A stretch of DNA of 64,000 bases. Origin: Nannocystis sp. GTDB taxonomy: Bacteria > Myxococcota_A > Polyangia > Nannocystales > Nannocystaceae. Position numbers and translations under genes: made by a program. Shown in pieces: positions 5,083-60,665 of this stretch; within the stretch, counting starts at the first letter, position 1, and each line of letters opens with the position of its first letter. The notes beneath the pieces were generated by a model. It saw only the letters and a list, made by a program, of their open reading frames with translations, had not been told where the DNA came from and ran no database searches. The stretch spans positions 4,669 through 68,668 of the forward strand of contig NZ_JADJNN010000008.1 of the NCBI RefSeq assembly GCF_016714285.1, in the 5' to 3' direction.

Positions 5083-5403
5083 ATGCCAGACCTGCTCACT
5101 GCATCCACGAATAGCTGCGATGACCCGAAGACCCCGCTGGTCGAGCTGTGTAGCGCGATCCGGCGGCCGAGGCCGTTGACGGGGAGCGTCGGCGGCGGCG
5201 GCGGCTCGGGTGGCAGCGGCCACATGCCGAACCCCGAGGAGCTGGTGGCCAAGGCGCTCGAGCACGTGTGGGACGCGCTGTCGGATCAGATCCAGACCCT
5301 GCGGGCCGAGAACCGCAGCTTGCAGGAGAAGATGGACGCGATGCAGCACAGCTTCGGCAGCGAGCTGGCGGCGGCGCGCAAGGTCGCCGAGCGCCAGCGC
5401 TGA
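5083..5403 (+). CDS. hypothetical small protein with a Gly-rich linker and a C-terminal coiled-coil (possible alternative start at ATG 5227)
   Basis: ORF 26 bp downstream of the kinase/TPR gene on the same strand, high GC3. C-terminal half (PNPEELVAKALEHVWDALSDQIQTLRAENRSLQEKMDAMQH...) is protein-like. Confidence 0.45.
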   Translation: MPDLLTASTNSCDDPKTPLVELCSAIRRPRPLTGSVGGGGGSGGSGHMPNPEELVAKALEHVWDALSDQIQTLRAENRSLQEKMDAMQHSFGSELAAARKVAERQR

Positions 5404-5490: not shown

Positions 5491-5949
5491 TCACGCGGCG
5501 GCGCGGCGCGGGCGGGCGATCCGGAGATCGGGGCGCCCGCGCTCGAGCATGAAGCGCCACAGCGGCTTGTCGCTCTTGGCCCGGTTGCACGGGCCGCAGC
5601 TGGGCACCAGGTTGTCCGGGTGGTTGCTGCCGCCGCGCGAGCGCGGGACCACGTGGTCCCGCGTCACCTCGCGCTTGCACAGGCGCGCGCCGCAGTAGGT
5701 GCAGAGCGTGCGCACGTGCCAGAGGTAGTGGCGGAACTCGCTGGTGAAGCAGACATCGAGGCGGTCGTGGATAACGTCGGCGACGGAGGTCTTCTTGTAG
5801 CGTGCGGTCTCCCGGAGCCGGCCCAGACGCCCGTCGCCCTTGCCCTGGCGCAGGCCCATCTTGCGCAGATGGCGTGCCAGGTAGAACTCGGGGCCGCGCT
5901 CCGGGCGGGGCGTGAGGGTGTCGTATTCGTGTTTCAGCTTGACGTACAT
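5491..5949 (-). CDS. HNH endonuclease (small stand-alone HNH nuclease)
   Basis: 152-aa ORF with HNH motif C-YCG....-DH.VPRSRGG...DNLVPSC..CNRAKSDK. GGAGG Shine-Dalgarno sequence upstream of ATG 5949. 40 bp downstream of the AbrB-like gene on the same strand. Confidence 0.85.
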   Translation of the reverse strand: MYVKLKHEYDTLTPRPERGPEFYLARHLRKMGLRQGKGDGRLGRLRETARYKKTSVADVIHDRLDVCFTSEFRHYLWHVRTLCTYCGARLCKREVTRDHVVPRSRGGSNHPDNLVPSCGPCNRAKSDKPLWRFMLERGRPDLRIARPRRAAA

Positions 5950-5989: not shown

Positions 5990-6196
5990 TCAATCGCGGT
6001 AGGTCAGGGTGCTCCACTGCGGGACGGCGACCGGGCCGCCGCGGCGCAGCTCGACCTGGGCCTCGACCTCCATGTCGCCGCCGGCCAGGCGCACGCGGTC
6101 GCCGGTGCGGATGCACAGCTCGCGCAGGCGGGCCGGGGAGAGGGGGATGCAGTGGTCCTCGGTGCGGACCGTGATATCGGCGTGGATCGTGCGCAT
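5990..6196 (-). CDS. small AbrB/MazE/SpoVT-like (swapped-hairpin) protein, putative regulator/antitoxin or immunity partner of the HNH nuclease
   Basis: 68-aa ORF (MRTIHADITVRTEDHCIPLSPARLRELCIRTGDRVRLAGG...). Perfect AAGGAGG Shine-Dalgarno sequence 6 nt upstream of ATG 6194-6196. The pattern vR..D...IPl....LRelgI..GD.V.l resembles AbrB/MazE N-domains; this is pattern-based, not searched. Confidence 0.6.
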   Translation of the reverse strand: MRTIHADITVRTEDHCIPLSPARLRELCIRTGDRVRLAGGDMEVEAQVELRRGGPVAVPQWSTLTYRD

Positions 6197-6441
6197 GACG
6201 GCCTCCTTCTCGGCGGAGCGATGGATGAATGGACAGAGATAAAGCGCGCAGAGGGAGTTGAACCCTCGCTTCCTCCGTGGCAGGGAGGCGTGCGGCCACC
6301 AGCACCTTGCACGCAGATCGATGGATCGACGGGTGTGGCCGCGACGGGCCAATGCCGCGGCGAATCAGCGCCCACGGATATGTGGGTACTTGCGGAGCTG
6401 CGACGGCGGGCCGCGGTCCGACGGAGGGCCGATCGAGCGGG

Positions 6442-9367: not shown

Positions 9368-9901
9368 ATGGCGAGGTCGGTGCATATTCTGTCGTTGCTG
9401 GACGACAGCGACATCGAGTGGTTGGTGCAGGTCGGGCTGCGCCTGAGCGTGCCGCCGGTGGCTCCGCTGGTGGAGGAGGGGCTGCGCACGCCGTTCCTCT
9501 ACATCATTCTTTCGGGGGCCTTTCTCGTGACGCAGAGCGCGACGGGGGCGACGGAGCGGTCGCTGTCGGTGATCCAGCGCGGGGAGCTGGTCGGGGAGCT
9601 GTCGTATCTCGACGCGCGGCCGCCGTCGGCGACGGTGCGGGCGGCCCGGGCCTCGCAGGTGCTGGCGGTGGCGCGCTCGGAGGTCGCGCGCAGGCTGCAG
9701 ACGGACGTCGGGTTCGCGGCCCGCTTCTACCGGGCGCTGGGGATCACGGTGGCGATGCGGCTGCGGGCCCTGACGCGCGGCGAGCCGGAGGACGAGCCGG
9801 ACCTCGAGCAGCTCGGGCTGGTGACGGTGGACGAGCGGCGCTTCGAGGCGATCATGCGCCGGCTGGAGGGGCTCCCAGGCGACGCAGACGCAGCGAGTTG
9901 A
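9368..9901 (+). CDS. cyclic nucleotide-binding domain protein
   Basis: 177-aa ORF starting at ATG 9368. cNMP-binding fold pattern ([12 protein letters not shown]...[23 protein letters not shown]). High GC3. Confidence 0.7.
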
Positions 9902-12323
9902 GCACGACGGTGAGGCTGCTGAGGGCCATCGCCAGGGCGGCGAGGGCGGGGTGGAGCGCGCGCAGGAAGCCCGGGGCGGCGGCGATCGGGTAGAGGGCGC
10001 CGGCGGCCACCGGGATCAGGACGAGGTTGTAGATCGAGGCCCACAGCAGGTTCTGGCGGACCACGGCGAGGGTGCGGCGCGACAGCTCCAGGGCCTCGGG
10101 CAGGCCGCGGAGGTCGCTGCGCATGAGGGTGAGGTCGGCGGCGTGGATCGCGACCTCGGCGCCGCTGCCCATGGCGACGCCGAGGTCGGCCTGGGCCAGG
10201 GCGGGGCCGTCGTTGATGCCGTCGCCGACCATGCCGACCGGGCCGTCCCGCTGGAGCGTGACGATCGCGGCGGCCTTGTCGGCCGGGAGCACGCCGGCGA
10301 TCACGTCGGCGGCGGGGATGCCGGCCTGGGCGGCGATGGCGATGGCGACCTGGCGGTGGTCGCCGGTCAGCATGAGCACGCGCAGGCCGGCGCGGCGCAG
10401 GGTGGCGACGGCCTCGGCGGCCTCGGGGCGCAGGGCGTCGGCCAGGGCGAGCAGGCCGAGCAGGGCGCCGTCGCGGGCCAGCCAGACGAGGGTCTGCGGG
10501 GCCTGCAGGGCGGCGGCGGGGAGGGCGAGGAGGGCGGGTGTCGCTTGGGACAGGTGGGTGGCGGTGGCGGTGGATGTCCCGGCGGACAGGTCGGGTGTCG
10601 CTTGGGACAGGTGGGTGGCGGCTGTCCCGGGGGACAGGTTTGATGTCTCTTGGGACAGGTTGATCGTGGCGCTGGCGGTGGCTGTCCCGGCGGACAGGTC
10701 GGCGGCGAGGGCGGTGAGGGCGGTGGTGTCGACGTGGTTGCTGGTGAGCCAGCGTTCGCTGCCGATGAGGAGGTCGTGGCCGCCGACGCGGGTGCGCAGG
10801 CCGTGGCCGCCGACGGCGCGGAGGTTGTCGCTGGCGGGGAGTTCGAGGCCGGCGTCGCGGGCGGCGGTGACGATCGCGCGGGCGAGCGGGTGCTCGCTGC
10901 GCTGCTCGGCGGCGGCGGCGAGGCGGAGGAGCTCGCGCGGGTCGACGCCGGGGGCGGGCGCGAGGGCGCTGAGCGTGGGGCGGCCGCGGGTGAGGGTGCC
11001 GGTCTTGTCGAGGACGAGGGTGCGCAGGGCCTGGGCTCGCTCGAGCGCGGCCATGTTCTTGAACAGGACGCCGCGGCGGGCGGCGGCGCCGGTGCCGACG
11101 ACGATCGCGGTCGGGGTGGCGAGGCCGAGGGCGCAGGGGCAGGCGATCACGAGGACGGCGACGGCGCGCAGGAGGGCCGCGCCGGCGCCCTGGTCGGCGA
11201 GCAGCCACCACAGCGTGAAGGTGAGGCCGGCGAGGGCGAGGACGACGGGGACGAACACGGCGGCGACGCGGTCGACCAGGCGCTGCACGGGGGCCTTGCT
11301 GGCCTGGGCGGCGCGGACGAGGCGGACGATCTGGGCCAGGGCCGTGGCTGCGCCGACGCGGGTGGCCTCGATCTCGAGGGCGCCGTCGCCGTTGACGGTG
11401 GCGCCGGTGACGGGGTCGCCGGTGGTCTTGCCGACGGGGCGGCTCTCGCCGGTCAGCATGCTCTCGTCGACCTCGGAGGCGCCGCTGCGGACGACGCCGT
11501 CGACCGGGATCGCGGCGCCAGGGGCGACCAACACGGTGTCGCGGACCCGGACCTCTGCGGCGGGGATCTCGAGCTCGTGGCCGTCGCGGCGGACCCGGGC
11601 GGTGGCGGGGCGGAGCGCGAGCAGGGCCCGGATCGCGGCGCCGGCCTGGCCGCGGGCGCGGGTCTCGAGCAGGCGGCCGACGCCCACGAGGGTGATGATC
11701 GCGGCGGAGGTCTCGAAGTGGACGTGGTGGCCGAGAGCGTGGCTGCCGAGGGACTCGGCGACGACCACCGGGACGCTGGCGAGGAAGGCCACGCCGGCGC
11801 CGAGGCTGATCAGGACGTCCATGGTGGCGGCGCGGGCCTTGAGCGCGTGCCAGGCCCCGCGCAGGTGCGGCGCGCCGGTGTAGGCGAGGACCGGCAGGGC
11901 GAGCGCCAGCAGGAGCCACAGGAGCCACGGGGCGGCCGTCCAGGCGCCGAGCAGGTCGAAGTCGCGGCCCATACCGAGGACCATCAGCGGGGCGGTGCAG
12001 GCGATCCCGACGAGGACGCGGCGGCGCTGACTGGCGAGCTCGGCGGCGCGGGCCAGCAGCTCGGCATCGTCGCCGCCCTCGCTGCCCGCGATCACGCTGT
12101 AGCCGGCGGCCTCGACGGCGGCGACCAGCTCACCGCGAGTGACTGTGCCGGGGGTCGCCAGGTGCACGCGGGCGGTCTCACTGGCGAAGTTGACGGCGGC
12201 CGCGGCGACGCCGGGGACGCTGGTGAGCGCGCGTTCGACGGTGTTCGCACAGTTGGCGCAGCGCAGCCCGGCGATCGCCAGCTCGAACTCGGGGTCGTCG
12301 GCGGCGGGCACGGAGCCGAGCAT
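9852..12323 (-). CDS. heavy-metal-translocating P-type ATPase (CopA-like) with N-terminal HMA domain; carries an in-frame low-complexity insertion in the N-domain
   Basis: 823-aa ORF. CxxC metal-binding motif ([12 protein letters not shown]), CPC motif ([11 protein letters not shown]), DKTGTLT phosphorylation motif, [10 protein letters not shown] hinge. A 70-80 aa Ser/Thr/Ala-rich insertion (LSQET/LSAGT repeats) is encoded by the GGACAGGT repeat array at 10540-10720. Confidence 0.9.
10540..10720. repeat. intragenic array of GGGACAGGT / TGTCCCGGCGGACAGG repeat units inside the P-type ATPase gene
   Basis: Direct repeats of gtcgcttgggacaggtgggtggcgg (x2), tgtcccggcggacaggtcgg (x2) and related units read directly in sequence. 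Confidence 0.85.
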
Positions 12324-19174: not shown

Positions 19175-19232
19175 GAGCCCGGGTGTACGCCGGGCGGCCG
19201 CGGGCTGTCCACGGGGCCGACGAAGCAGGACG

Positions 19233-19646
19233 TCAGGGGCACACGCAGCGGACCTTGTCGCCGCCGTTCGGGACCTTGCCGGTCTGGCCGCAGTCGAGGT
19301 CGTAGCGGGCGCCGGTACAGCGTTGGGCGCCCTTCCCGTCGGGGCTGCAGGCGGAGTACATCTCGACGCAGCCGTCGCCGAGGCCGGGGCGCGGGTGGAG
19401 GTCGCGGTGGCCGGCGAGCGGAGGGGGCGGGGCGGCGGGCGGTGGAGTTGGTGGGGTTTCGGCGAGCGGGGGTGGGGGTGTCGGAGGCGTCGGTGGGGTT
19501 TCGGCGATTGGGGGTGGTGGTGTCGGAGGCGTCGGTGGGGTGGGTGCGGTCGGGGTTGTCGGTGGCGTCGGGGCGGCGGGCTTGGTCGGCTCGGTCGGGG
19601 CGGTGCAGGCGAGGAGCAGGGCGCCGAGGAGGAGGAGGCGGTGCAT
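19233..19646 (-). CDS. Pro/Thr-rich lipoprotein with C-terminal Cys-rich domain
   Basis: Start ATG 19646 (MHRLLLLGALLLAC, lipobox LLAC). PTPPTPP repeats encoded by ~45-bp tandem repeats at 19440-19560. C-terminal domain with 6 Cys. The longer upstream ORF to 19991 is low-GC3 and was rejected. Confidence 0.55.
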   Translation of the reverse strand: MHRLLLLGALLLACTAPTEPTKPAAPTPPTTPTAPTPPTPPTPPPPIAETPPTPPTPPPPLAETPPTPPPAAPPPPLAGHRDLHPRPGLGDGCVEMYSACSPDGKGAQRCTGARYDLDCGQTGKVPNGGDKVRCVCP

Positions 19647-19649
19647 GGT

Positions 19650-20564
19650 GGGACGATAACCTGGGTGGGAGCGCGGGCGGTGGGGCACGGGCCGGGGTGG
19701 GGCCGGCCCTCCGGCGAGCGACGCCTCCGCTAAAGGCAAGGCGGTCGGCGTCGCCGAGAGCCGGCCCCACCCCGGCCCTGAATGGGGTGACGTCGCTGCG
19801 CGGTATGTAGCAGCGAATGCGACGGGTTGCACTCGATATGTCGCATTGCTGTGAGCCTCGAAGCGCTCACCGTTCAATGCACTCAAATGGGTCCGGGGCA
19901 GTCCTGCGGAGCGTCCGTGTCGGGCGCGCACATTGCTGTCGGGCCCATGTCGCCGCAACAATCGTCGTGGCTGCAGAGGATGCAACTCCATTCGAAGCAG
20001 GCCGTGATGCGTCCAATGTGAATGAGTTGTGGTCGCCGTGTGGCACCTTTCGTTCCTGTCCGAAGAGGCAGGTTGCGAGTCTCAGGCCGGGGCGGGCCTC
20101 GGCGACGCCGTGATGCATGCAATGTGAATGAGTTGTGGTCGCCGTGTGGCACCTTTCGTTCCTGTCCGAAGAGGCAGGTTACGAGTCTCAGGGCCGGGGC
20201 GGGTCCGGCCTCGGCGACGCCGATCGTACCGTCCTTTAGCGGAGGCTTCGCTTGCCGGGGGGCCGACGGGGGGGTCGACCGAGTCAAGGGGCGCCGTGGA
20301 GAACGAAGTTCTCCAAAGGCGAACCCGCCCTGTCTGAGGGCGAACCCCCCGTCGGACATCCGGCTTCTCGAGGATACGCGCGCGCCCGCCGGACCCGCCC
20401 CGGTCCGTGCCACGATACTCGCGGAGTCCTGCTGTGATAGCGAGGATACTCGCGGAGTCCTGCTGTGATAGCCCGGTCCGTGCCACGATACTCGCGGAGT
20501 CCTGCTGTGATAGGCCGGTCCGTGCCTTGATATTCGCGGACCTGCGATAGCGAGGGGTCGGCCT
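19650..20564. repeat. repeat-rich noncoding region: two ~105-bp direct repeats (20005-20109, 20110-20221), 3-4 tandem ~42/27-bp units (20399-20555), flanking inverted 14-bp repeat (cctccgctaaagg / cctttagcggagg at ~19727 and ~20243)
   Basis: Read directly. Locally lower GC, with no ORF showing credible codon bias. Confidence 0.8.
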
Positions 20565-20941
20565 TCAGGGCAGCTGGGCGCGGCGCAGGGCGGCGGCGGC
20601 GAGGGCGTCGAGCACGGGCTCGTCCATGCCGATCGCGCCGGGGCTCAGGTGGAGGGTCAGCTGCGGGTATGCGGCCTGGACGGCGGCGATGAGGGCGGGG
20701 ACGTCGCGCTTGATGTGTTTGCCGCCGGGGCTGAGGAACAGGGGGACGACGGCGATCGTGCGGTGGTCCGTGGCGAGCCTGGCGATCGCGGCGGCGAGGG
20801 TGGGCCCGTGCTCGAGGGTGGCGACGTGGACCGGCGTGGCGGGCTGAGCAGGCGCAGGCGAGCCGCGGTGCGCTCTGCCGGGGCGAGCCAGTCGGGGTCG
20901 GGGCTGCCGTGGGCGAGCAGGACGATCGCGTCGGCGATCAT
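20565..20941 (-). pseudogene. cbiX: sirohydrochlorin chelatase CbiX (small form), frame-disrupted near 20850-20870 (frameshift or sequencing error)
   Basis: N-terminus MIADAIVLLAHGSPDPDW in one frame (from ATG 20941). The rest of CbiX (ATPVHVATLEHGPTLAAAIARLATDHRTIAVVPLFLSPGGKHIKRDVPALIAA...) is in the +1 frame, ending at stop 20565-20567. Start overlaps the serA stop by ATGA. Confidence 0.6.
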
Positions 20942-25853: not shown

Positions 25854-25972
25854 GCGTGGCTGCGGCGGGGGAATAATCGCCGCGATGGGCGTGCGGGGGT
25901 GACGACGCGGTGGAGCGGGCGAATGGCGCCCGCGGTTGACACCCGCGGGCGCGCGCGCGAGAACGCGGGCCC

Positions 25973-26839
25973 GTGCGCCGCCTCGCCTGTCTCTGGCTCG
26001 CCTCCTCGCTGATCGCGGTGGGCGGGCCGGCGCGCCCGCTGCACGCGGCGCCGGTCAGCGAGCGCGCGGCCGATGTGCCGCTCGCGGTCGAGGGACCTGC
26101 GCCAAAGGACAGGTCGGGAGAGGCTGGCGCGGAGGACAGGTCGGCTGGCTCCGGGGACAGGTCGGGGTCAGCTGGCCCGGAGGACAGGTCGGGAGAGGCT
26201 GGCCCGGAGGACAGGTCGGGGTCGGCTGGCCCGGAGGACAGGTCGGCTGGCTCTGGGGACAGGTCGACGCCGCGGTCGGCGGCCGAGGGGATGCCCGCGG
26301 CGCCGCGGGTGCCGGCGCCGACGGCTGCGATCAAGGATGGGGGTCCAGAGCTGGTCACGGTGGCGGTCGGGCTCGGGCCCTCGGCGCCGGGCTCGAAGGC
26401 GGAGACGGCGGTGGTCGACGCGCTCGAGCGCGCCGCCCGGGCCTCGCAGGCGCCGCCGACGCTGGTTCGCCGCCTGCGGGCCGGGGCGGGCGAGGGGCGG
26501 GCGATCTGCCGCGAGCGTCGCGACGACCTGGTGCTGCTGCTCGAGTACATGCCCGATCGACCCGAGCCGGTGTTGGTGCCCCGGGACTGCCGCCTCGACC
26601 GTGAGCTGGCGCTCCGGGGGAAGGAGGCCGCAGGTGAGCCGGCCCTCATCGGCGTACTGTGGGAGGAACATCGGGCGCTCGTCCGCGGCGGGGCCCGCGA
26701 GCGCAAGGTGAGGATCAGCCGCAAGGTGAAGACGGGCCTCATCGCTGGCGGGGCGATCGTGGTCGTCGGGCTGGCGATCGTGCTGGTTGTGGTCAACAGC
26801 TTGCGCCGCGAGACGGTCGTGCTCACAGTGGGGCCATGA
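25973..26839 (+). CDS. secreted/membrane-anchored protein with (G/A)E(A/D)GPEDRSG tandem repeats
   Basis: GTG 25973. Signal peptide LACLWLASSLIAVG. Seven ~8-9-aa repeats encoded by the GAGGACAGGTCGG tandem array at 26095-26270. C-terminal TM helix. Stop overlaps the next ATG (ATGA). Confidence 0.6.
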   Translation: MRRLACLWLASSLIAVGGPARPLHAAPVSERAADVPLAVEGPAPKDRSGEAGAEDRSAGSGDRSGSAGPEDRSGEAGPEDRSGSAGPEDRSAGSGDRSTPRSAAEGMPAAPRVPAPTAAIKDGGPELVTVAVGLGPSAPGSKAETAVVDALERAARASQAPPTLVRRLRAGAGEGRAICRERRDDLVLLLEYMPDRPEPVLVPRDCRLDRELALRGKEAAGEPALIGVLWEEHRALVRGGARERKVRISRKVKTGLIAGGAIVVVGLAIVLVVVNSLRRETVVLTVGP

Positions 26840-45084: not shown

Positions 45085-46113
45085 CTACACCGGCGGTCTG
45101 CGGTTCAGGAGGTGGCGATCACGGCGAGGCCCAGGACGACAGGTAGGGGACGAAGGGAGCAGGCCGACGCGCACGAGCAGGGTCATGAGGGCGCGCAGGG
45201 TCAGGCTGCCGACCGCGAAGCTGGCGGCGAAGCCGAGGGCGTAGCTGGTCGGGGCGATGCTCGTGGCGCTGCCGTGCTGCCACAGGTCGAGCGACTCCTT
45301 GAGCGAGGCGCCGAGGATCGCGGGGATCGCGAGCAGGAAGGAGAAGCGGGCCGCGGGCAGGCGACCGAGGCCGAGGGCCATCGCCGCGGCCATGGTCGTG
45401 CCGCTGCGCGAGACGCCGGGGAGGATCGCGACCAGCTGGGCGAGGCCGATGACGAGGCCCTGCCACGGGCGCGGGGCCTCGAGGCTGGCGACGCTGTCGT
45501 CGCGCCGGTGCGAGAAGGCGAGCAGGGCGGCGGTGATGAGGAAGCCGCAGCCGATCCAGCGGGTGCTGGTCTCGGCGGCGAGGACGATCGCCATGGTGGT
45601 GTCGCTGAGCGCGAGGGCCAGCGGGAGGGTGCCGACGATCAGGGCGAACAGGAGGGCGCGGGCGGTGTTCAGCGGCGGGCCGACGCGCGCGGGGACCAGG
45701 TCGCGCGAGGGGCCAGGTGGGGGGCCAGGGTTAGCACCTGGCCCATCGGACAGGTCGTCGGCGAGCGCGGGGCCAGTGTGTGGGCCTGGCCGTGAACCTG
45801 CCCCATTGGACAGGTCGTCGGCGAGCGCGAGGGGGTCGCCGACGGGGGCTGTGGGGGTCCCGGTGTGGTGGACGATCGCGACCTGGCGCGGCTGGAACAC
45901 GGCGCGGGCGAGGGCGCCGAGGTCGTGGCGGTAGAACAGCAGGACGGCGACCAGGGTGCCGGCGTGGACGACGATGTTGAAGGTGTGGCCGCCGCTGGCC
46001 GCGTCGACGCCGAGCCAGGTCTGGGCCAGGGCGAGGTGGCCCGAGGAGGAGATCGGGAGGAACTCGGCGACGCCCTGGAGTGCGCCGAGGGCGAGGGCCA
46101 GCAGCGGGCCCAT
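45085..46113 (-). CDS. uppP: undecaprenyl-diphosphatase (UppP/BacA) carrying an ~80-aa in-frame low-complexity insertion
   Basis: ATG 46113 (MGPLLALALGALQGVAEFLPISSSGHL, the BacA N-terminal motif). Later BacA motifs (PGVSRSGTTM, FSFLLAIP). The insertion (QPRQVAIVHHTGTPTAPVGDPLALADDLS...GPPPGPSRDL) is encoded by GGACAGGTCGTCGGCGAGCGCG direct repeats at 45745-45835. Confidence 0.85.
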   Translation of the reverse strand: MGPLLALALGALQGVAEFLPISSSGHLALAQTWLGVDAASGGHTFNIVVHAGTLVAVLLFYRHDLGALARAVFQPRQVAIVHHTGTPTAPVGDPLALADDLSNGAGSRPGPHTGPALADDLSDGPGANPGPPPGPSRDLVPARVGPPLNTARALLFALIVGTLPLALALSDTTMAIVLAAETSTRWIGCGFLITAALLAFSHRRDDSVASLEAPRPWQGLVIGLAQLVAILPGVSRSGTTMAAAMALGLGRLPAARFSFLLAIPAILGASLKESLDLWQHGSATSIAPTSYALGFAASFAVGSLTLRALMTLLVRVGLLPSSPTCRPGPRRDRHLLNRRPPV

Positions 46114-46124
46114 GCCGGGGTCGC

Positions 46125-48041
46125 TCACGCATCCTCCGCGGGGGCCTCGTTGGCGGCGGAGCTGTCCTCCGGGACAGCCGGACGCGTGCTGTCCTCCGGG
46201 ACAGCCGCGGACGCGTGCTCGGCGGAGCTGTCCTCCGGGACAGCCGCGGACGCGTGCTCGGCGGAGCTGTCCTCCGGGACAGCCGCGGACGCGTGCTCGG
46301 CGGAGCTGTCCTCCGGGACAGCCGCGCGCGCGCGCTCGACGACGCCGCGCTCCCACAGCTGCTCGTCGATCGCGCGCATGAGGGCCGCGGTGCTGCGGCG
46401 CTCGTTGGCGCTGATGAAGTAGGTGTGGCGGTCGGCGTCGGCGCGGCGGTGGTTGAGCTCGTCGGGGCCCAGGCGGTCGATCTTGTTGTAGACCCACAGG
46501 CGGGGCACGGCGCCGGCACCGATCTCGCCGAGGATCGCCTCGACGGTGGCGCGCTGCTGGTCCTGGTCGGGGTCGCTGGCGTCGACGACGACGAGCAGGA
46601 GGTCGGCCTCGGCGACCTCCTCGAGGGTGGCGGAGAAGGCCTGGACGAGCGCGGGGGGGAGGTCGCGGATGAAGCCGACGGTGTCGAGGAGGACGACCTC
46701 GTAGTCCTTGGGGAAGCGGATCCTGCGGACGCTGGGGTCGAGGGTGGCGAACAGCTTGTCCTCGGCGACGACGGCGCTGTCGGTGACGGTGTTGAGCAGG
46801 CTGCTCTTGCCGGCGTTGGTGTAGCCGACGATCGCGACCACGGGCACGCCGGTGCGCCGACGCAGGGCCCGACGCTGGTCGCGGCGCTGCTTGAGCGCGA
46901 GCAGGCGGCGCTCGAGGTCGTGGATGCGCTCCTTGGCGCGGCGGCGGTCGATCTCGAGTTTGGTCTCGCCGGGGCCGCGACCACCGATGCCGCCGGCGAG
47001 CCGCGACATGGCGGTGCCGTGGCCGATCATCCGCGGCAGGAGGTAGCGCAGCTGGGCCAGCTCGACCTGCAGCTTGCCGTCGGCCGAGGTGGCGTGCTGG
47101 GCGAAGATGTCGAGGATGAGGGTGGTGCGGTCGATGACCTTGAGGTCGGTGCGCTCGCCGATCTCGCGGGCCTGCGAGGGGGTGAGGTCGGGGTCGCAGA
47201 TCAGGAGCTCGACGTCCTGGGCGAGGGCCCGCACGAGCACGTCGCGCAGCTTGCCCTGGCCGAAGAAGGTGCGCGGGTCGGGGCCGGGGCGGCGCTGGGT
47301 GGCGAGGTCGACTAAGTGGAGGCCGTCGGTGCGGCACAGCTCGCGCAGCTCCTGCTCGCGGGCGTGCAGCTCGGGGCCCTCGCCCTGGTGGATCATGAGG
47401 GCCATGGCGCGGGTGCCCTGCGACTCGGCGCGCGCGCCCGCGGTGGCGGCGACGAGGCCGGCCTCGAGGTCGCGGATGAAGCCGAGGAAGTCGGAGGGCA
47501 TGTCCGCGGCGGGCCGCATGCCGGTGGTGTGGCCGGGGTCGTCGTCGTCGCGGGCGAGCACGCCGAGCGGGACGCGCGGGAAGCCGCGCACGACGAAGAT
47601 GTCCTTTGAGCCAGGTTGTGGCGGGGCCAGGCTGGCGAGGTCGATCTGGACGCCGGCGGGGCCGGTGTGGATCGCGGCGAGGAGGTCGAGGCGCAGCTTG
47701 GCGAGGTCGGCGAGCTCCTCGCGGGTCGGCGGGTCGGGGACCAGGTGGGTGAGGACCAGCCGGACGCCGCGCAGGCGGCCGCCCTGGCCGCGCACGCGGG
47801 TGAACTCCGGGAGGGCGAGGCTGTGGGCGTCGCCGAGGATGACGCGCTGCACGCGGCCGCGGCGGTCGATGAAGAGGCCGAGCTGGCGGTTGAGCTGGTG
47901 CGAGAGCTCGAGCAGGTCGCGCGCGAGCACGGCCGAGATGACGCTCGTCGGCGGGACCTGGCGCGCGCCGAGCCGCTGCAGCGCGCGGGCCTGGCTGCTC
48001 TTGAGGTTCGCCGTGTCGCCGTGGACGATCGGGTCGCTCAC
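46125..48041 (-). CDS. hflX: GTPase HflX with N-terminal extension and C-terminal AAVPEDSSAEHAS tandem-repeat tail
   Basis: GTG 48041 overlaps the stop of the upstream gene (GTGA). HflX N-domain and G-domain motifs (GYTNAGKSSLLN, DTVGF, NKID). Five C-terminal 13-aa repeats encoded by 39-bp tandem repeats at 46160-46326. Confidence 0.9.
   Translation of the reverse strand: MSDPIVHGDTANLKSSQARALQRLGARQVPPTSVISAVLARDLLELSHQLNRQLGLFIDRRGRVQRVILGDAHSLALPEFTRVRGQGGRLRGVRLVLTHLVPDPPTREELADLAKLRLDLLAAIHTGPAGVQIDLASLAPPQPGSKDIFVVRGFPRVPLGVLARDDDDPGHTTGMRPAADMPSDFLGFIRDLEAGLVAATAGARAESQGTRAMALMIHQGEGPELHAREQELRELCRTDGLHLVDLATQRRPGPDPRTFFGQGKLRDVLVRALAQDVELLICDPDLTPSQAREIGERTDLKVIDRTTLILDIFAQHATSADGKLQVELAQLRYLLPRMIGHGTAMSRLAGGIGGRGPGETKLEIDRRRAKERIHDLERRLLALKQRRDQRRALRRRTGVPVVAIVGYTNAGKSSLLNTVTDSAVVAEDKLFATLDPSVRRIRFPKDYEVVLLDTVGFIRDLPPALVQAFSATLEEVAEADLLLVVVDASDPDQDQQRATVEAILGEIGAGAVPRLWVYNKIDRLGPDELNHRRADADRHTYFISANERRSTAALMRAIDEQLWERGVVERARAAVPEDSSAEHASAAVPEDSSAEHASAAVPEDSSAEHASAAVPEDSTRPAVPEDSSAANEAPAEDA
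46160..46326. repeat. five tandem ~39-bp repeats each containing the perfect palindrome GCTGTCC-TCCG-GGACAGC, inside the 3' end of hflX
   Basis: Read directly (gagctgtcctccgggacagccgcggacgcgtgctcggcg x5). Confidence 0.9.
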
Positions 48042-54953: not shown

Positions 54954-55017
54954 CAGCCCGGCGTTCGCGGGCTCGCGGCGGGAGAAAAAAGCGACGCTCG
55001 CCGGTTGATTCGCGCGC

Positions 55018-55289
<272 letters not shown>

Positions 55290-55305
<16 letters not shown>

Positions 55306-55370
55306 GGCTGTCCGAGGGGACAGGTTGCGGCCGGCGTACTTGATGTGAGGCTGTCCGAGCGGACAGGTCA
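55290..55370. repeat. two direct copies of TGATGTGAGGCTGTCCGAG(G/C)GGACAGGT, each with a CTGTCC-N4-GGACAG palindrome, between convergent genes whose stop codons lie in or next to the copies
   Basis: Read directly. Candidate bidirectional terminator or repeat element. Confidence 0.8.
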
Positions 55371-56270
55371 GCGGCGACGACGGAGCAGGAGGGCGAGCGG
55401 GAGCAGGAGGGCGAGCGAGGCGGGCTCGCCGGGGCTGCCGTTGCAGCCGCAGCCGCTGCTGCGCTCGGGGTCGGTGTTGATGCAGTCGCAGTCGCTGCAG
55501 TCGGGCGGGCGCAGGTCGAGGCCCGAGGCCTGCTCGAGCCAGCACAGGCCGCCGATCGGCGCGGCGTAGAAGCCGCCCTTGCCGCAGGTGTAGCCGCGCG
55601 AGGTGACGCCGGCGAGCACGTACTCGCCGCTGGCGAGCTTGGCGAAGGCGGGGCCGCCGGAGTCGCCCTGGCACGAGTCGAGGCCCATGCCGCCGGCCTG
55701 GAACTCGAGGCCGGAGCCGCTGAACTTGGTGATCGGGACGTCGACCTGGCGCTTGATGCCGGTGATGTCGCCCTCGTTGAGGCCGTAGCCGACGACGGTG
55801 ACCTTGTTGTCGACGGCCATGAGCTCGTCCCACTCGTCCTGGTCGGCGATCGGGCGCGGGAACTCGAGGATGTCGGACTGCGGCTTGGTGAGCACGAGGA
55901 AGCCGTAGTCGTGGATGTCCTCCTTGCAGCTCTTCGCGCCGCAGAACTCGGGGTCGAAGCCGATGGCGGCGACCTTGTAGACCGGGACCGGGAAGTTGAC
56001 GTCGTCGCCGCGGCGGACGGTGATGCTGCTGAGCGAGGGCTCGGACTCGAGGCAGTGGGCGGCGGTGAGGACGATGGTCGGGCTGACGAGGGTGCCGGTG
56101 CACAGCGAGCTGCCGAGGGTGATGGCGACGACCGCCGGCCAGGCGCCCGGCTCGACGACCTGGCCGCCGTAGATCGGGACGGGCGGCGGTGGGACGGCGG
56201 TGAGGGTGCCCGTGGGGGTGGCGAGGGCGATCACGGCGGCGAGCCCGGAGAGCAGCATGGCGGCCAGCAT
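55368..56270 (-). CDS. trypsin-like S1 serine protease with MYXO-CTERM sorting signal
   Basis: Catalytic triad context TAAHC, D, GDSGGP. C-terminus GCGCNGSPGEPASLALLLPLALLLRRRR (MYXO-CTERM). Confidence 0.85.
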   Translation of the reverse strand: MLAAMLLSGLAAVIALATPTGTLTAVPPPPVPIYGGQVVEPGAWPAVVAITLGSSLCTGTLVSPTIVLTAAHCLESEPSLSSITVRRGDDVNFPVPVYKVAAIGFDPEFCGAKSCKEDIHDYGFLVLTKPQSDILEFPRPIADQDEWDELMAVDNKVTVVGYGLNEGDITGIKRQVDVPITKFSGSGLEFQAGGMGLDSCQGDSGGPAFAKLASGEYVLAGVTSRGYTCGKGGFYAAPIGGLCWLEQASGLDLRPPDCSDCDCINTDPERSSGCGCNGSPGEPASLALLLPLALLLRRRR

Positions 56271-56315
56271 ACCGTGTTCACCGTGGGGCCGCGGTGAGCG
56301 ATGCTGCGCCCGTGA

Positions 56316-57698
56316 TCACAGGCTGGCGGCGGGGAGGTCGACGATCGGGCCGAGGTCGAGGTCGGCGAGCGGGGCGTCGACGAGGGACGGGTCGCCGACG
56401 ACGACGATCTGGAGGTCGTCGAGGGCGAAGTGGCTGCGCAGCGAGCGGGTGACCGCGGCGGCGTCGCAGGGTGGGGGGCGAGCGTTCGGGAGCGCGTGCC
56501 AGTGGGCGCGGGCGAGGCTCTGCAGCTGGTCGGCGTCGGTCTGGCGGCGGTACAGCTGCTCCAGGGCCTCGTGGACGCAGACGCGGGCGACGAGCCCGGG
56601 AGCGAGGCCCTGGCGGCGCAGGCGGGCGAGGGTGTCGGCGATGACGCCGAGGCTGCGGCCGACGGCGGCGGCGTCGACCTGGGTGACGATGCGGAGCAGG
56701 CCCGGGCCGCGGGCGGGCTCGCGGCTCACTTCGACGCCGTAGGTCGCGGCCATGTCGTCGCGCAGGCGCTCGCCGAGGGCGCTCTGCACGATGTCGGCGG
56801 CGACCTGGGTGGCGAGGTCGTCCTCGGCGATCGCGGCGGCGCGGCCGAGCACGACGACGGCCTGGGCGAGGCCCGGGCGGGCGATGCGGTGGATGGCGCG
56901 GCGCGGGGCGGGCGCGAGGGCGGGGAGCCCCTGCGGGTCGGCGGGGCCGCTCCAGCCGGCGAGTCTGGGGGCGGCGGCGGCGACGAGGGCCTGCGGGTCG
57001 GCGTCGCCGGCGACGACGATCGTCAGCGCGGCGGGGCCGAGGCTGCGCTGGCCGTGCTCGCGGACCTGCTCCAAGGACCATGTCCCGGAGGACAGCTCGC
57101 TGGTCGCGTGGGGGTGGCCGGGCGGGAGGCTGACGCGGCGCAGGCCGGCGAGCGCGAGGGTTGTTGGGTCGTCGCGGGCGCGGGCCCGGGCGGCGGCGAG
57201 TTCGGCGGTGATGTCGGCCAACTCGGCGGCCAGCTCGGCGGCGTCGCCGGGCTGGTCGAGCGGGCGGCGGATCGCAGCGAGGAGGGCGCGCAGCGCCGCG
57301 GGGGCGTGCTCGGCGGGGACCTCGGTGGCGAGCAGGGCGCCCGAGCTGCTGATGTGCAGCTGCGGCGCGCCGCCGAGGTCGGCGAGGGCGGCGGCGAGGC
57401 TGCCCTCGCGCTCGTCGTGGCCGCGCAGGAGGCCGAGCAGGAGGGCGCTGAGGCCCGGGCGATCGGGCGGGTCGCTGGCGTGGCCGAGGCGGAGCGACAG
57501 GCCGAGGGCGACGCTGCGCGGGCCGGCGCCGGGGCGCGTGATCGGGGTGAAGTGCAGCGGCACGTCGGCGACGACGAGGCGACGGGTGGCGGGCGCGGGC
57601 GGGAGCGCGGGCGCGGGCGGGGCCGGCGGCGGCGTGCGCCGCCAGACCGAGCAGGCGAGGGTGGCGGCGGCGAGGGTGAGGACGAGGGCGCGAGACAT
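56316..57698 (-). CDS. M16-family peptidase-like lipoprotein (non-catalytic/C-terminal-type subunit)
   Basis: ATG 57698; lipobox LAC. M16 C-terminal-domain-like sequence, no HxxEH. 460 aa. Paired with the upstream M16 gene. Confidence 0.75.
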   Translation of the reverse strand: MSRALVLTLAAATLACSVWRRTPPPAPPAPALPPAPATRRLVVADVPLHFTPITRPGAGPRSVALGLSLRLGHASDPPDRPGLSALLLGLLRGHDEREGSLAAALADLGGAPQLHISSSGALLATEVPAEHAPAALRALLAAIRRPLDQPGDAAELAAELADITAELAAARARARDDPTTLALAGLRRVSLPPGHPHATSELSSGTWSLEQVREHGQRSLGPAALTIVVAGDADPQALVAAAAPRLAGWSGPADPQGLPALAPAPRRAIHRIARPGLAQAVVVLGRAAAIAEDDLATQVAADIVQSALGERLRDDMAATYGVEVSREPARGPGLLRIVTQVDAAAVGRSLGVIADTLARLRRQGLAPGLVARVCVHEALEQLYRRQTDADQLQSLARAHWHALPNARPPPCDAAAVTRSLRSHFALDDLQIVVVGDPSLVDAPLADLDLGPIVDLPAASL

Positions 57699-57848
57699 GG
57701 CGCGGGGGACAGGTGCGAGGAGACAGGTGCGAAGGGACAGGTTGGAAGGGACAGGTGGGATGGCCGCGGGGACAGGTGCGAAGGGACAGGTGGGGATGGC
57801 CGAAGGGACAGGTGGGAGGGGACCGGTGGGGATGGCCGAAGGGACAGC
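57699..57848. repeat. intergenic tandem array of eight degenerate 14-22-bp units built on GGGACAGGTG (…GGACAGGTGCGAAG / GGACAGGTTGGAAG / GGACAGGTGGGGATGGCCGAAG…)
   Basis: Read directly between the two M16 peptidase genes. All copies are on the + strand. Confidence 0.9.
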
Positions 57849-59189
57849 TCAGGTGGGTGGGGTGGCGAGGATGATGGCGCGGCGCGGGGCGGCGAGGAGG
57901 GTCCTGGCGGCGGCGGCGACGTCGGCGGGGGTGACGGCGAGCCACTGGGCGAGGTCGTGCTCGAGGCGGTCGGGGTCGCCGAATGCGGCGGCGTAGCCAG
58001 ACAGGAGGCTGGCGCGGGTGAGCAGGTCCTGGGGGGCGCGGCGCAGGCGCTGGGCGAGGCGCAGGCGGGCGCGGCGGAGCTCGGGCTCGGCGAGCTCGCC
58101 GGCGGCGACGCGGGCGAGCACGCCGTCGATCGCGGCGAGCAGGCGGGCCCCGTCGCTGCCGGGCGGGCCGATCAGCTCGATGACGGCGACCGACTGCTGC
58201 GGCTGGCTGAACTGCTCGGCGCCCAGGGCGGCGACGAGGGCGGCGTCGGGGCCGGCGAGGCGGCGGAAGGCGCCGGCGTGGAGGGCCGCGAACAGGACGT
58301 CGAGGGCGGCGTCGCCGTCGGCGTGCAGGCCCGGGCTGGCCCAGCCGCACAGGGCGCTCGGCGGGCCGCCGGTGGCGACGCGCTCGTGCTGCGGGCCGTC
58401 GGCGGGGAGCGGCGGGAGCGGGCGCGGGCGCCTGTCCCGGGGGACAGGTGAGCCGGGGATGCTGGCGAAGTAGCGGTCGATCTGGGCGCGGGTGTCTTGC
58501 GGGAGGTCGCCGACGATCGTGAGGGTGGCGTTGCTCGGGGTGTAGTGGGCGGCGAGGAAGGCGTCGACGTCGGCGGGGCGGATCGCGGCGATCGCCGCGT
58601 GCGGGCCGATGACGGTGTGGTGGTAGGGGTGCTCGGGCGGGAAGAGGCGGGCGAACAGGCGCTCGATGCGGGCGCCGCGGGGGTCGGTCTCGCGTCGCTG
58701 GCGGCGCTCCTGGGCGACGATCGCCTGCACCGAGGCGAGGGTGTGGGCGCCGGTGCTGCCGCGCAGGTAGCCCATGCGGTCGGCCTCGAGCCACAGCACG
58801 GTGGCGAGGCCGGCCTGCGGGGCGAGGGTGTAGTACTCGCTGCTGTGGAGGTCGGTCTCGGCGTTGTCGTGGTGGATGAAGGCGCGGGCGCGGGCGCGTT
58901 CGCGGGCCTCGGCGTCGATGTGGCGCGAGCCCGCGAACATGAGGTGCTCGACGACGTGGGCGAGGCCGCGGCGCTGCGGCGGATCGTCGACGGCGCCGAC
59001 GTGGTAGCGCAGGTGCACGGCGACGAGCGGGAGCCGGGCGTCGCGGCGGAGGATGACCTCGAGGCCGTTGGCGAGGTGGTAGTGCGCGTCGCCGGGGGCG
59101 CGGGCGGAGCTCGGGGTCGCGGGGGCGAGGTCCGGTGCCGCGGGCGCGAGGGCCAGCCAGGCGGGCAGCAGGGCGGCGAGGATGCGCAC
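57849..59189 (-). CDS. M16-family zinc peptidase (pitrilysin-like, HxxEH motif)
   Basis: GTG 59189 (VRILAALLPAWLALAPAAP, a signal peptide). Inverted zinc-binding motif HVVEHLMFAGS. 446 aa. Confidence 0.8.
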   Translation of the reverse strand: MRILAALLPAWLALAPAAPDLAPATPSSARAPGDAHYHLANGLEVILRRDARLPLVAVHLRYHVGAVDDPPQRRGLAHVVEHLMFAGSRHIDAEARERARARAFIHHDNAETDLHSSEYYTLAPQAGLATVLWLEADRMGYLRGSTGAHTLASVQAIVAQERRQRRETDPRGARIERLFARLFPPEHPYHHTVIGPHAAIAAIRPADVDAFLAAHYTPSNATLTIVGDLPQDTRAQIDRYFASIPGSPVPRDRRPRPLPPLPADGPQHERVATGGPPSALCGWASPGLHADGDAALDVLFAALHAGAFRRLAGPDAALVAALGAEQFSQPQQSVAVIELIGPPGSDGARLLAAIDGVLARVAAGELAEPELRRARLRLAQRLRRAPQDLLTRASLLSGYAAAFGDPDRLEHDLAQWLAVTPADVAAAARTLLAAPRRAIILATPPT

Positions 59190-59408
59190 GAATTGACCAT
59201 GGGGCGACGACGTCGCGGGGGTCAAGGGCAGGGCCGGTCGCGGTCCGATCGGGTGGGCGCGAAGCGGGGCGCGCAGGGACGGCGGAGCGTGAAAGGCGGC
59301 GCACACTCGGGCCGGGGCGGGCCTGGGATCCGTACGGGGCGGGCGGCGCCGCGGTCGTGAAGGCCGGCAGAGAAATCTGGTAATGCTCGGGCCGCCGCGG
59401 AGCCTCGC

Positions 59409-60665
59409 TTGTCCACCTCCTCGACTCCTCCCTCCGGCGATCGCCAGACCCCGCCCCAGGTGGTGCGGCCGGACCTGCCGCCGCGCTTCGAGCTCGACCA
59501 CGACTTCACGGAGGCGCTGGCCCACATCGCGGCGATCCGGACCCGCCGCAAGCTCGAGCGCGACCCGGTGTACCGCGAGATCAAGCCGCAGCTCGAGCGG
59601 GTGCTGCGGGGCTTCGAGTGGGACCTCGAGCCGACGCTCGGGACCTCGCTGACGGCGCGGCGGCCGGGCGTGGTGCGGGTGGCGGCGTGGAACGTCGAGC
59701 GAGGCAAGCGCTTCGCCGGGCTGCGGCACGCGCTGACCCACGACCCGGTGCTGCGCGAGGCGGACGTGCTGCTGCTGACGGAGGTCGACATCGGCATGGG
59801 TCGCTCGCAAAACCTCAACGTGCCGCGCGAGCTGGCGGCGGCGCTGGGCATGGGCTACGTGTTCGCCAACTATCACATCGTGCTGGCGGAGGGCGACCGC
59901 GGCGAGCGCGGGCACGGGATCCCGAACACCAAGGCGATGCACGGCTGCGCCCTGCTGACCCGCTTCCCGGTGCTGCGCTTCGAGGCGGTCGACCTGGCGG
60001 AGCGCAAGGACAAGTTCCACGCGACCGAGAAGCGCATCGGCAACAAGCGCACGCTGCTGTGCGAGCTGCTGCTGCCGGACGGGCCGCTGTCGCTGGCGCT
60101 GGTGCACCTCGATCCCTTCACGGGGCCGCGGCACCGGGCGGGCCAGCTGCGGCAGATCGTCGCCCGGCTGCGGCGCTTCGGCGGCGAGCGGATGCTGCTC
60201 GGCGGCGACCTCAACACCAACACCTACGACCTCGGCAGCGGCCAGGGGATGCTCTACAACATGCTCTACAAGCTCACGCGCTTCGGCTTCGAGGGCACGG
60301 TGGAGCAGTACATGAAGCCGGAGGAGATCCTCGAGCGCAAGGTGTTCGACGCGCTGCGAGCGGGCGGGCTGGCGATCGAGGGCTTCAACGACTTCGCCCG
60401 CGGGACCATTTACTACGACGTGTACGACCCGGAGATGGCGCGCAAGGCCCTCGACTACCTGCCGAAGCCGGTGTGTCGGTGGTTGATGGGCTGGCTCGAG
60501 CGCCGGCTCGAGCCGTGGGACGGCCGGGTGCCGCTGCGGGTCGACTGGTTCGCGGGCGCCGGGCTGCGACCGCGCTCGCCGCAGGTGATCGAGCGGCCGA
60601 TGGTCGACGGGCAGATCATCAGCGACCACAACCCGATCCTCGTCGACCTCGAGCTGGCGAACTAG
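59409..60665 (+). CDS. endonuclease/exonuclease/phosphatase (EEP) family protein
   Basis: 418-aa ORF (TTG start in track, so the true start is uncertain). EEP-like segments (VAAWNVERGKRF, LLTEVD, LVHLDPF, ISDHNPILVDLEL). Confidence 0.75.
   Translation: MSTSSTPPSGDRQTPPQVVRPDLPPRFELDHDFTEALAHIAAIRTRRKLERDPVYREIKPQLERVLRGFEWDLEPTLGTSLTARRPGVVRVAAWNVERGKRFAGLRHALTHDPVLREADVLLLTEVDIGMGRSQNLNVPRELAAALGMGYVFANYHIVLAEGDRGERGHGIPNTKAMHGCALLTRFPVLRFEAVDLAERKDKFHATEKRIGNKRTLLCELLLPDGPLSLALVHLDPFTGPRHRAGQLRQIVARLRRFGGERMLLGGDLNTNTYDLGSGQGMLYNMLYKLTRFGFEGTVEQYMKPEEILERKVFDALRAGGLAIEGFNDFARGTIYYDVYDPEMARKALDYLPKPVCRWLMGWLERRLEPWDGRVPLRVDWFAGAGLRPRSPQVIERPMVDGQIISDHNPILVDLELAN

Follow-up and report, generated by a model that had tools for sequence, protein, structure and literature searches.

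A tandem array between two M16 peptidase genes as a probable local expansion of a dispersed palindromic repeat

Two adjacent genes for M16 peptidases are separated by 150 nt of tandem repeats in the 64-kb stretch of DNA analysed here (the entire stretch is called the window, and the array occupies positions 57699-57848 within it). This position, between the stop codon of one gene and the start codon of the next, raises the question of whether the array serves as a dedicated regulatory site of the downstream gene or derives from a repeat that is also found elsewhere.

The array and the genes that it separates

Both flanking genes lie on the minus strand and encode M16 peptidases (Pfam). The features of the junction are as follows.

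57849..59189, minus strand: upstream gene M16A, of the active-subunit type, with an HVVEH zinc motif and Peptidase_M16 and M16_C domains
57841..57855, minus strand: ninth, interrupted repeat unit, GGGACAG-CTCAG-GTG on the + strand
57699..57848, minus strand: intercistronic tandem array of eight clean CACCTGTCCC units (sense), in which the GC3 signal is lost
56316..57698, minus strand: downstream gene M16B, of the inactive-subunit type, with the M16_C domain only, an N-terminal signal peptide and a conserved Cys

The best solved relatives of M16A were 4nnz and the 'zinc peptidase active subunit' 3amj_C, and a homologue search returned a protein identical to the M16B of the window (P0001). A pair of genes such as M16A and M16B is typical of heterodimeric M16B peptidases. 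The GC content of the window is ~74%, with an excess of G over C along the whole + strand (GC skew +0.09 to +0.31); minus-strand transcripts are C-rich in general.

We observed eight clean copies of a core that reads GGGACAGGTG on the + strand (degenerately, G[G/A]GAC[A/C]GGT[G/T]) and CACCTGTCCC on the gene strand. They start at + strand positions 57706, 57720, 57734, 57748, 57769, 57783, 57805 and 57819, with core-to-core distances of 14/14/14/21/14/22/14 nt and a single orientation throughout. Short and long units alternate, giving a higher-order period of 36 nt. In mRNA sense, the short 14-nt unit is the core plus TTCG, and the long 21-22-nt unit is the core plus TTCGGCCATCC, which is TTCG followed by GCCATCC, the degenerate right arm of the palindrome described below. 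Tandem Repeats Finder reported period 14 (score 76) and the higher-order period 36 (3.3 copies, 87% matches, score 187). At ≤1 mismatch, the 10-mer core occurred 30 times in the window compared to 7.7 ± 2.7 times in shuffles, and 8 of the 30 occurrences were packed into 123 nt of the array. The repeats fill the non-coding gap exactly, from the upstream TGA (57849-57851) to the downstream ATG (57698). The interrupted ninth unit covers this TGA and the last codons of M16A, and the ATG of M16B falls within the last repeat, in that unit's degenerate right arm (ACCTGTCC-cccg-CGCCATGT).

The same array, equal in length and with one substitution, was present in a wastewater-metagenome contig that had been assembled independently (L001; 98.6% identity across 2860 bp). 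The array is therefore neither an assembly artefact nor hypervariable at 98.6% identity. Between the two strains, substitutions per base were fewer in the array (1 in 150) than in its flanks (41 in 2860), but the counts are far too low to tell array and flanks apart. The original prediction of eight head-to-tail units in one orientation, filling the 150-bp gap between two M16 genes, was confirmed by the positions, Tandem Repeats Finder, the shuffles and L001. It needs one correction of strand: the genes lie on the minus strand, and the mRNA-sense unit is CACCTGTCCC followed by TTCG or by TTCGGCCATCC.

In a CRISPR array, repeats of 23-48 nt alternate with spacers that are unique and comparable to them in length. 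Here, units of 14-22 nt lie head-to-tail and their 'spacers' of 4-12 nt are themselves repeated, in agreement with the earlier statement that the array is not CRISPR-like. Pfam analysis of 50 of the 52 window ORFs (all except 5224-5403 and 5990-6196) detected no Cas families, no transposase and no RAYT (IS200/IS605-type tyrosine transposase). GC3 was 0.95-1.0 in both M16 genes, and codon-position GC fell to ~0.7 at all three positions inside the gap. This flat third-position signal indicates that the array is non-coding.

A dispersed palindromic family

The most over-represented 8-mer of the window was GGACAGGT, with 30 copies on the + strand compared to 1.74 expected (z = 21) and 3 copies on the minus strand. 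We observed that this octamer is the conserved arm of a dispersed imperfect palindrome of 20-22 nt, ACCTGTCC-N4-GGMCAG. An alignment of 74 copies drawn from the window and its relatives gave the C-rich-strand consensus 5'-ACCTGTCC-(C)NNN-G-G-[A/C]-C-A-G-[C>G]-[C/T]-3', in which position 23 is C in 73 copies and the loop is variable (3-4 nt). The stem comprises 6 bp (CTGTCC/GGACAG), often with a T.C mismatch, and an unpaired AC is conserved at its 5' foot. Because the stem is kept by sequence and without compensatory changes, the element appears as repeat copies and not as a structure-selected RNA. The 64 kb contain ~20 (C)TGTCC-N4-GGACA(G) palindromes, and the motif is enriched 15-29 fold in both orientations. 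GGACA half-sites are seen as direct repeats, as inverted pairs (TGTCC-N4-GGACA) and as everted pairs (GGACATGTCC). Each 22-nt unit of the M16 array corresponds to this dispersed element, its right arm being degenerate (GGCCATCC). In the 14-nt units the right arm is wholly lost, and most array units are one-armed.

The motif was equally over-represented in the related loci L002, L003, L005 and L125 and in L083, a Nannocystis sp. MAG. A metagenome scan with the query ACCTGTCCCTTCNNCCAKCY yielded ~10 family-like loci among 120, the remainder being mostly chance singletons of ~60% GC. These ~10 further independent high-GC contigs carried multiple copies, including arrays of 27-45-nt period, and in some contigs a perfect palindrome, TGACCTGTCC-N4-GGACAGGTCA, fits exactly between the stops of convergent genes. 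We ruled out a universal motif. A scan of one genome per species (185,579 species) with CACCTGTCCC-N(4-12)-CACCTGTCCC matched >118 loci in many phyla. As a control, exact 10-mers repeated at 14-22 nt were found at ~1000 positions per Mb in the matched loci, and the cross-phylum matches are background because ~1000 matches are expected for any given 10-mer. The only related genome among them was the Nannocystis sp. MAG.

The strand bias of the octamer might suggest a polar signal oriented with replication, as Chi and KOPS are, of which the array would be a cluster. GGACAGGT lies almost exclusively on the G-rich strand (30:3 in the window; 10:0, 4:0, 12:0 and 5:0 in relatives), in genes of either orientation. 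Counted as independent events, however, the ratio was 40:11, and composition alone predicts 65-82% on the G-rich strand (P = 0.03 masked, P = 0.8 unmasked); GC skew largely accounts for the bias. Both orientations are enriched 15-29 fold, and the second arm, the loop and the arrays are features of a repeat and not of Chi or KOPS. We consider a polar signal highly improbable.

Element events occur in the window roughly once per 4-5 kb, about two thirds of them inside ORFs (rough gene calls). The copies considered here are listed below.

58430..58449, minus strand: single copy CCTGTCC-CGGG-GGACAGGT within M16A, which codes for the PVP that is invariant in the interdomain linker
57081..57094, minus strand: palindrome TGTCC-N4-GGACA inside M16B, encoding L-S-x-G-T
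55305..55370, minus strand: two hairpin copies, TGA-CCTGTCC-GCTC-GGACAG-CC and ACCTGTCC-CCTC-GGACAG-CC
46154..46338, minus strand: array of 39-nt period, ~4-5 copies, with the perfect variant hairpin GCTGTCC-TCCG-GGACAGC
45736..45817, minus strand: two copies 60 nt apart, ACCTGGCC-CATC-GGACAGGT and ACCTGCCC-CATT-GGACAGGT on the + strand
26106..26284, + strand: array of 7 units GGCTGGCC-CGGA-GGACAGGTC, with periods of 27 and 21 nt, among + strand genes
10531..10702, minus strand: array inside a CopA-type P-type ATPase ORF, in frame

The copy in the M16A linker occupies the same site in all orthologues. Four species have one unit there, and L005 shows an expansion to 4 (+57 aa). L002 and L125 have the M16B-internal palindrome at a comparable offset, and its conservation may be that of the protein sequence only. 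Gene ends also carry the element. The hairpins at 55305..55370 directly follow the stop of a trypsin-like gene (the next after M16B), between convergent gene ends, and have orthologous copies in L003, L005 (3 copies) and L124. The TGACCTGTCC arrangement follows the stops of M16A, of the trypsin-like gene (window, L003, L005) and of a STAS-domain gene (L002).

Within ORFs, the CopA array accounts for ~60 extra residues (query residues 526-607) relative to A. fulgidus CopA. The array at 46154..46338 lies at the 3' end of an HflX-type GTPase ORF, and the copies at 45736..45817 lie inside a BacA/UppP ORF, the Pfam match of which is split into two stretches. The consensus unit contains no stop codon in any of six frames (read from the consensus), so in-frame copies can be tolerated inside genes; in proteins the element is read in different frames, as PVPS, HLSQ and DLSAGT. 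The array at 26106..26284 is oriented to transcription opposite to the M16 array, and its sense RNA carries the G-rich form, an orientation also seen in arrays of L141 and L162. Since arrays exist in either orientation to transcription, their formation is a DNA-level process, independent of any one RNA sequence.

The M16 junction in related bacteria

Homologues of M16B at 51-66% identity came from uncultured Nannocystis-like bacteria, and M16A identity was 64-82% across four loci (L002, L003, L005 and L125). The gene order common to the homologue loci was phosphatase, M16A, M16B, trypsin-like protease, small ORF, adenylosuccinate lyase and ECF sigma factor. We observed the core at 6/6 orthologous M16 junctions, as one copy where the gap is 9-29 nt and as 3-11 tandem copies where it is longer. 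Where the junction is minimal, the left arm follows the stop directly (TGA-CCTGTCC), and the start codon lies within the degenerate right arm (GCC-ATG-TC). The L003/L004 junction is a single unit in a 29-nt gap (TGA-CCTGTCCCAAGAGCCATCTCCCACGCGCC-ATG). At L127, a perfect hairpin, CCTGTCCCGAGGGACAG, lies in the last M16A codons and is followed by TGA, 9 nt and ATG. The L125/L126 junction (TGA-CCTGTCCCGAGAGCC-ATG) is duplicated once with a 57-nt period, and the duplication produces a 13-codon mini-ORF with its TGA 15 nt before the ATG.

The longer junctions differ from one another. L124 has at least three units of ~30 nt each, and L005 has four CACCTGTCCCTTCGGCCAG units with a 27-nt period. The 195-nt gap of L002 holds eleven CACCTGTCCC units followed by AAACGC or AAACGCCAGCC, with a 37-nt higher-order period. 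Spacers of the tandem copies differ among the orthologous junctions. The core and its position at the junction are old, and copy number and spacer sequence are lineage-specific. Array length, which the original prediction had proposed to compare among relatives, was unchanged in the 98.6%-identical strain and ranged from 1 to 11 units between species. The likeness to a minisatellite was thus upheld (tandem, one orientation, copy number differing between species).

These junctions also bear on whether the array is translated, either by read-through of the TGA, which would fuse the M16 halves via a proline-rich linker, or as an N-terminal extension of M16B. One reading frame is common to M16A and M16B, and the 150 nt are free of stops in every frame. 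The L002 junction is likewise in frame and open; by our reading the short L127 junction is in frame, and so is one L125 repeat unit, though it ends in TGA. The 27-nt period of L005 is a multiple of 3, with no other canonical start before the signal peptide, and gene callers annotated an N-terminal extension of the downstream protein there. Single-chain M16 enzymes with both halves exist (chains of ~900-990 residues among solved relatives). An open frame is nevertheless uninformative, because the element is stop-free in six frames, and chance alone would put ~1/3 of junctions in frame. Codon-position GC stays level throughout the array, the 14- and 22-nt units shift the frame from unit to unit, and the 29-nt junction of L003 is out of frame. 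The signal peptide and conserved Cys of M16B start directly at its own ATG. Translation of the array is hardly to be expected.

[quoted passage not shown] DNA sites bound by a nucleoid protein or regulator with specificity for GGACAGGT, acting on the downstream M16 gene, would agree with a core that is strictly conserved and spacers that vary, both within arrays and between species. The direct, inverted and everted arrangements of GGACA are ones that operator half-sites can show. Events are found about every 4-5 kb, however, mostly in ORFs (rough calls; CopA, BacA, HflX and M16A) or after stops, and spacing of 14/21/22 nt (16/21 in L002) places successive sites on different helix faces. We found no promoter consensus. 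Neither a sigma-70-type promoter nor an intrinsic-terminator consensus was detected in 55000-60000 (the promoter scan used the sigma-70 consensus only), and by eye the array held no match to the sigma-54-type TGGCAC-N5-TTGC. An internal promoter is unneeded because the gene pair is contiguous in relatives. We regard a binding-site array as very unlikely. The earlier claim does not agree with an element scattered in coding sequences, at gene ends and in relatives' genomes, or with the 9-29 nt junctions of relatives and a locus with no sigma-70-type promoter, no helical phasing and no SD-like 4-mer. As an interpretation, the original prediction was partly supported: it was correct on the minisatellite and on CRISPR, was not supported on binding sites, and missed membership of a genome-wide palindromic family.

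Our preferred explanation, which we consider probable, is that the array arose by head-to-tail amplification of the left arm of a short dispersed REP-like imperfect palindrome that is common in the Nannocystis-like lineage. The array is best read, from its sequence and that of its relatives, as a local pile-up of a dispersed repeat, without being a locus-specific dedicated regulatory site. The comparison of junctions shows one copy of the element as the seed at the ancestral M16A/M16B junction. In the lineage of the window, duplication of the conserved left arm and loop produced first 14- and 22-nt units and then 36-nt blocks, until the 150-nt gap was filled. Sister lineages expanded the same seed independently, with other spacers, and the same seed-and-expand process is seen in coding linkers (the M16A linker of L005, and CopA). 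Slippage during replication, or unequal recombination between repeat copies, is the likely route, as opposed to selection for a regulatory array, and the expansion was probably close to neutral. A conserved core with species-specific spacers could also reflect purifying selection on the core, that is, a function, and not re-expansion.

The array as RNA and its likeness to known repeats

The sense RNA of the window array had a minimum free energy (MFE) of −18.6 kcal/mol over 171 nt (z = +1.48), and 188 of 200 shuffles folded at least as well. The L002 array was less structured still (MFE −7.1 kcal/mol, 218 nt, z = +3.8), and the + strand transcript of the window array was unremarkable (z = −0.4). 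The sense strand of the window array is 55% C and 15% G, which places it at the 99.6th percentile of C minus G on the minus strand. Neither the window array nor the L002 array contains ATG, GTG or TTG, a stop codon or a Shine-Dalgarno (SD)-like 4-mer in any frame, and no SD-like sequence precedes M16B in any of the orthologues seen. A structured RNA was rejected: the array had no Rfam match and folds worse than shuffles. At gathering score, Rfam detected two tRNAs only in the whole window.

Rho utilisation (rut) sites are RNA stretches, 80 nt or longer, that are neither translated nor structured, are rich in C and poor in G, and have no defining repeated motif. The array has this composition (long, C-rich, G-poor, unstructured and untranslated); the likeness to a rut site is in composition only. 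One may ask whether the array is a selected RNA-level spacer that tunes expression through Rho loading or SD-less initiation, its length setting the A:B ratio. The window and L002 independently hold long and unusually unstructured arrays, both very C-rich and G-poor, with no start codon, no stop codon and no SD-like 4-mer. An SD-like sequence is absent ahead of M16B in every orthologue seen, and array length is equal in the two strains. A C-rich unit repeated head-to-tail will, however, give unstructured RNA of itself, so this property needs no selection. Minus-strand transcripts of the window are C-rich anyway, junctions of 9-29 nt suffice in relatives, arrays of opposite orientation give G-rich RNA (26106-26284, L141 and L162), and others lie inside coding regions. 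We consider a selected spacer unlikely.

An array that grew by amplification of a dispersed repeat would nonetheless form, on the bicistronic mRNA, an untranslated, unstructured, C-rich and G-poor spacer. Translational coupling is most efficient at short distances (PMC12548453). Because the relatives' start lies 9-29 nt after the stop, where short distance favours coupling, the 150-nt spacer should weaken or even abolish the close-range coupling of the inactive subunit that relatives use. Translation of M16B would then need long-range re-initiation or SD-independent entry on unstructured RNA. The spacer would also expose a stretch that resembles Rho loading sites in its general properties, and expression of the downstream subunit may be lower or uncoupled. 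For the M16 genes the consequence appears small: most probably the array is a side effect of repeat dynamics, and a shift in the subunit expression ratio is the most that it would cause.

The closest known kind is that of repetitive extragenic palindromes and their clusters (REP/BIME), with which we compared the element. Described REPs include GTAG- and CGTC-tagged families, with documented tandem reiteration, stop-supplying termini and intragenic copies (Di Nocera et al. 2013, PMC3733652). Similar to REP/BIME, which are 20-40 bp long, the element is a short imperfect palindrome in many copies, with a conserved stem and a variable loop (PMC3733652). Its terminus can supply a stop codon, some copies are intragenic, tandem clusters occur, and abundance differs between related species, as in REP/BIME (PMC3733652). 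REPs prefer unidirectional and convergent gene junctions and are rarely arranged head-to-tail (PMC3733652). REP/BIME copies lie mostly downstream of ORFs, and copies of the element likewise follow stops or lie between convergent genes, yet by rough gene calls ~2/3 of the events in the window are inside ORFs. REP superfamilies are defined by a terminal GTAG or CGTC tetranucleotide, and CGTC REPs have no dedicated transposase (PMC3733652). The element has neither terminal tetranucleotide: C/T and then G/C precede ACCTGTCC, (N)AC forms the conserved unpaired flank, and TGTC is part of the stem. Also unlike REP/BIME, the M16 array is head-to-tail with most units one-armed (no longer palindromes), many element copies are intragenic and in frame, and no RAYT was seen in the 64-kb window.

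Another parallel is offered by the GTAG-1 repeats of Thauera sp. MZ1T, which have 5-bp stems and arrays flanking EPS genes, with a role in expression that their authors suggested and left untried (PMC3733652). The element shares with them very short stems, discovery through tandem-repeat searches and arrays beside particular genes; the Thauera repeats, unlike ours, are GTAG-tagged and belong to a host of a different phylum. Because REP traits are shared but the tag, the arrangement and the arm loss differ, we file the element as REP-like in behaviour and outside the described REP superfamilies.

Mycobacterial interspersed repetitive units (MIRU), reportedly described by Supply et al. in 1997, are said to be units of 46-101 bp with small ORFs that overlap the start and stop of the neighbouring genes and keep translational coupling. 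The M16 array resembles them as an intercistronic tandem repeat in one orientation, with lineage-varying copy number and with repeat ends that include the stop and start codons of the genes on either side. A further likeness is seen in L125/L126, where duplication over 57 nt makes a 13-codon mini-ORF. Unlike MIRU, the units of the window are 14-22 nt, contain no start codon and form no coupling ORFs, and array length is equal in the 98.6%-identical strain. In-frame copies in CopA, BacA, HflX and the M16A linker recall Rickettsia palindromic elements, palindromic repeats that are tolerated in frame in unrelated housekeeping genes (PMC10969869). Those elements are ~150 bp, single and encode a conserved peptide; the present element is 20-22 nt (seven times shorter), is read in several frames and grows in tandem.

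A literature search by sequence strings returned primer matches only, and we found no literature on repeats of this kind in myxobacteria. The array appears to be an ordinary type of bacterial repeat, in a variant and a lineage that appear undescribed in the searched literature. A more far-reaching proposal, which we find unlikely, is that this is an undescribed REP-like family of Nannocystis-like myxobacteria, tagless, kept at orthologous junctions (M16B 51-66% identical) and growing one-armed and head-to-tail both between genes and in frame in housekeeping proteins, with its arrays acting as evolvable spacers that would tune the M16 subunit ratio via lost coupling and Rho-dependent polarity.

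The wider value of the locus lies in an uncultured Nannocystis-like lineage with a dense, undescribed palindromic family that marks gene ends, supplies stop-codon contexts and is inserted in frame in conserved proteins. Such a family bears on how very GC-rich, strongly skewed genomes make low-complexity protein linkers, and in metagenomes it could be used for strain typing of Nannocystis-like organisms. It also affects annotation, as gene callers merged or extended ORFs over arrays, for example in a 492-aa call in L005.

Repeats inside coding genes

Copies of the palindromic element and a hairpin array were located inside coding genes on the minus strand:

10531-10702, minus strand: in-frame array of the palindromic element inside the CopA-type copper ATPase ORF (9852-12323)
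45736-45817, minus strand: two copies of the palindromic element, 60 nt apart, inside the BacA/UppP ORF (45085-46128)
46154-46338, minus strand: array of about 4-5 copies with a 39-nt period (97% matches) in the HflX-type ORF (46125-48041), at its 3' end

The CopA array translates as DLSAGT../NLSQET../HLSQATP repeats. Upon comparison with A. fulgidus CopA (3j09), we observed that ~60 residues from this array, lying between query residues 526 and 607, were missing in the A. fulgidus protein. The Pfam match of the BacA/UppP ORF was broken into two stretches, and this split, in conjunction with the element copies within the ORF, suggests an in-frame insertion in BacA. The repeat unit of the HflX-type array is a perfect hairpin (GCTGTCC-TCCG-GGACAGC). 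The 39-nt period of this array is divisible by 3, so HflX probably gains a repetitive tail at its C-terminus.

We also observed an array amid plus-strand genes:

26106-26284, amid plus-strand genes: seven units of GGCTGGCC-CGGA-GGACAGGTC, together 150 nt long, with periods of 27 and 21 nt

This array may lie within ORF 25940-26839, for which we did not find a Pfam match. It and the M16 array face opposite ways relative to transcription.

The M16 junction in relatives

In two loci of uncultured Nannocystis-like relatives (L125, positions 2057-2130, and the same region of L126), the minimal junction TGACCTGTCCCGAGAGCCATGTCCCG has undergone duplication at a period of 57 nt. The duplication produces a 13-codon mini-ORF (MSRFAFTAALVAP*), a copy of the M16B start, which terminates 15 nt ahead of the real M16B ATG. 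In a further relative (L005, 2563-2700), the public M16B gene call (492 aa) begins at the ATGA overlap and spans a 4-unit array. We did not observe a canonical start codon between that putative start and the M16B signal peptide.

The wastewater-metagenome contig L001 does not match the window over its final 228 nt (2861-3088). Where the trypsin-like gene should have its 3' end, this segment resembles part of a polyketide ketosynthase, owing either to chimeric assembly or to a rearrangement.

Related palindromes and window composition

Betaproteobacteria MAGs (L015, L024, L032, L039-L041, L077, L080 and L090) carry a REP-like family on the same 10-mer. Their repeats are inverted pairs, GGGGACAGGTG-aattt-...-CACCTGTCCCC, in genomes unrelated to that of the window. 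Because of the background estimate, we treated the shared 10-mer as coincidence.

A second over-represented palindrome in the window is GGACATGTCC, with seven exact copies (22735, 27906, 35709, 50329, 52554, 62659 and 63867); GACATGTC occurs 10 times. The GGACATGTCC palindrome often resembles two overlapping elements of an ACATGTCC subfamily.

No convincing ORF was found in the ~1.8 kb at 19175-20937, which contains two sets of repeats:

20001-20203: 106-nt repeat, 1.9 copies (95% matches)
20414-20540: 31- and 42-nt repeats

Just upstream of these repeats lies the most G-rich stretch of the plus strand (19404-19604). The whole window shows a very strong, uniform GC skew (+0.09 to +0.31 in all 2-kb bins, mean ~+0.18), which is maintained over genes in either orientation. 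An HNH endonuclease ORF lies between two tRNA genes:

1872-1945, minus strand: tRNA gene
5491-5949: HNH endonuclease ORF
6243-6314, minus strand: tRNA gene
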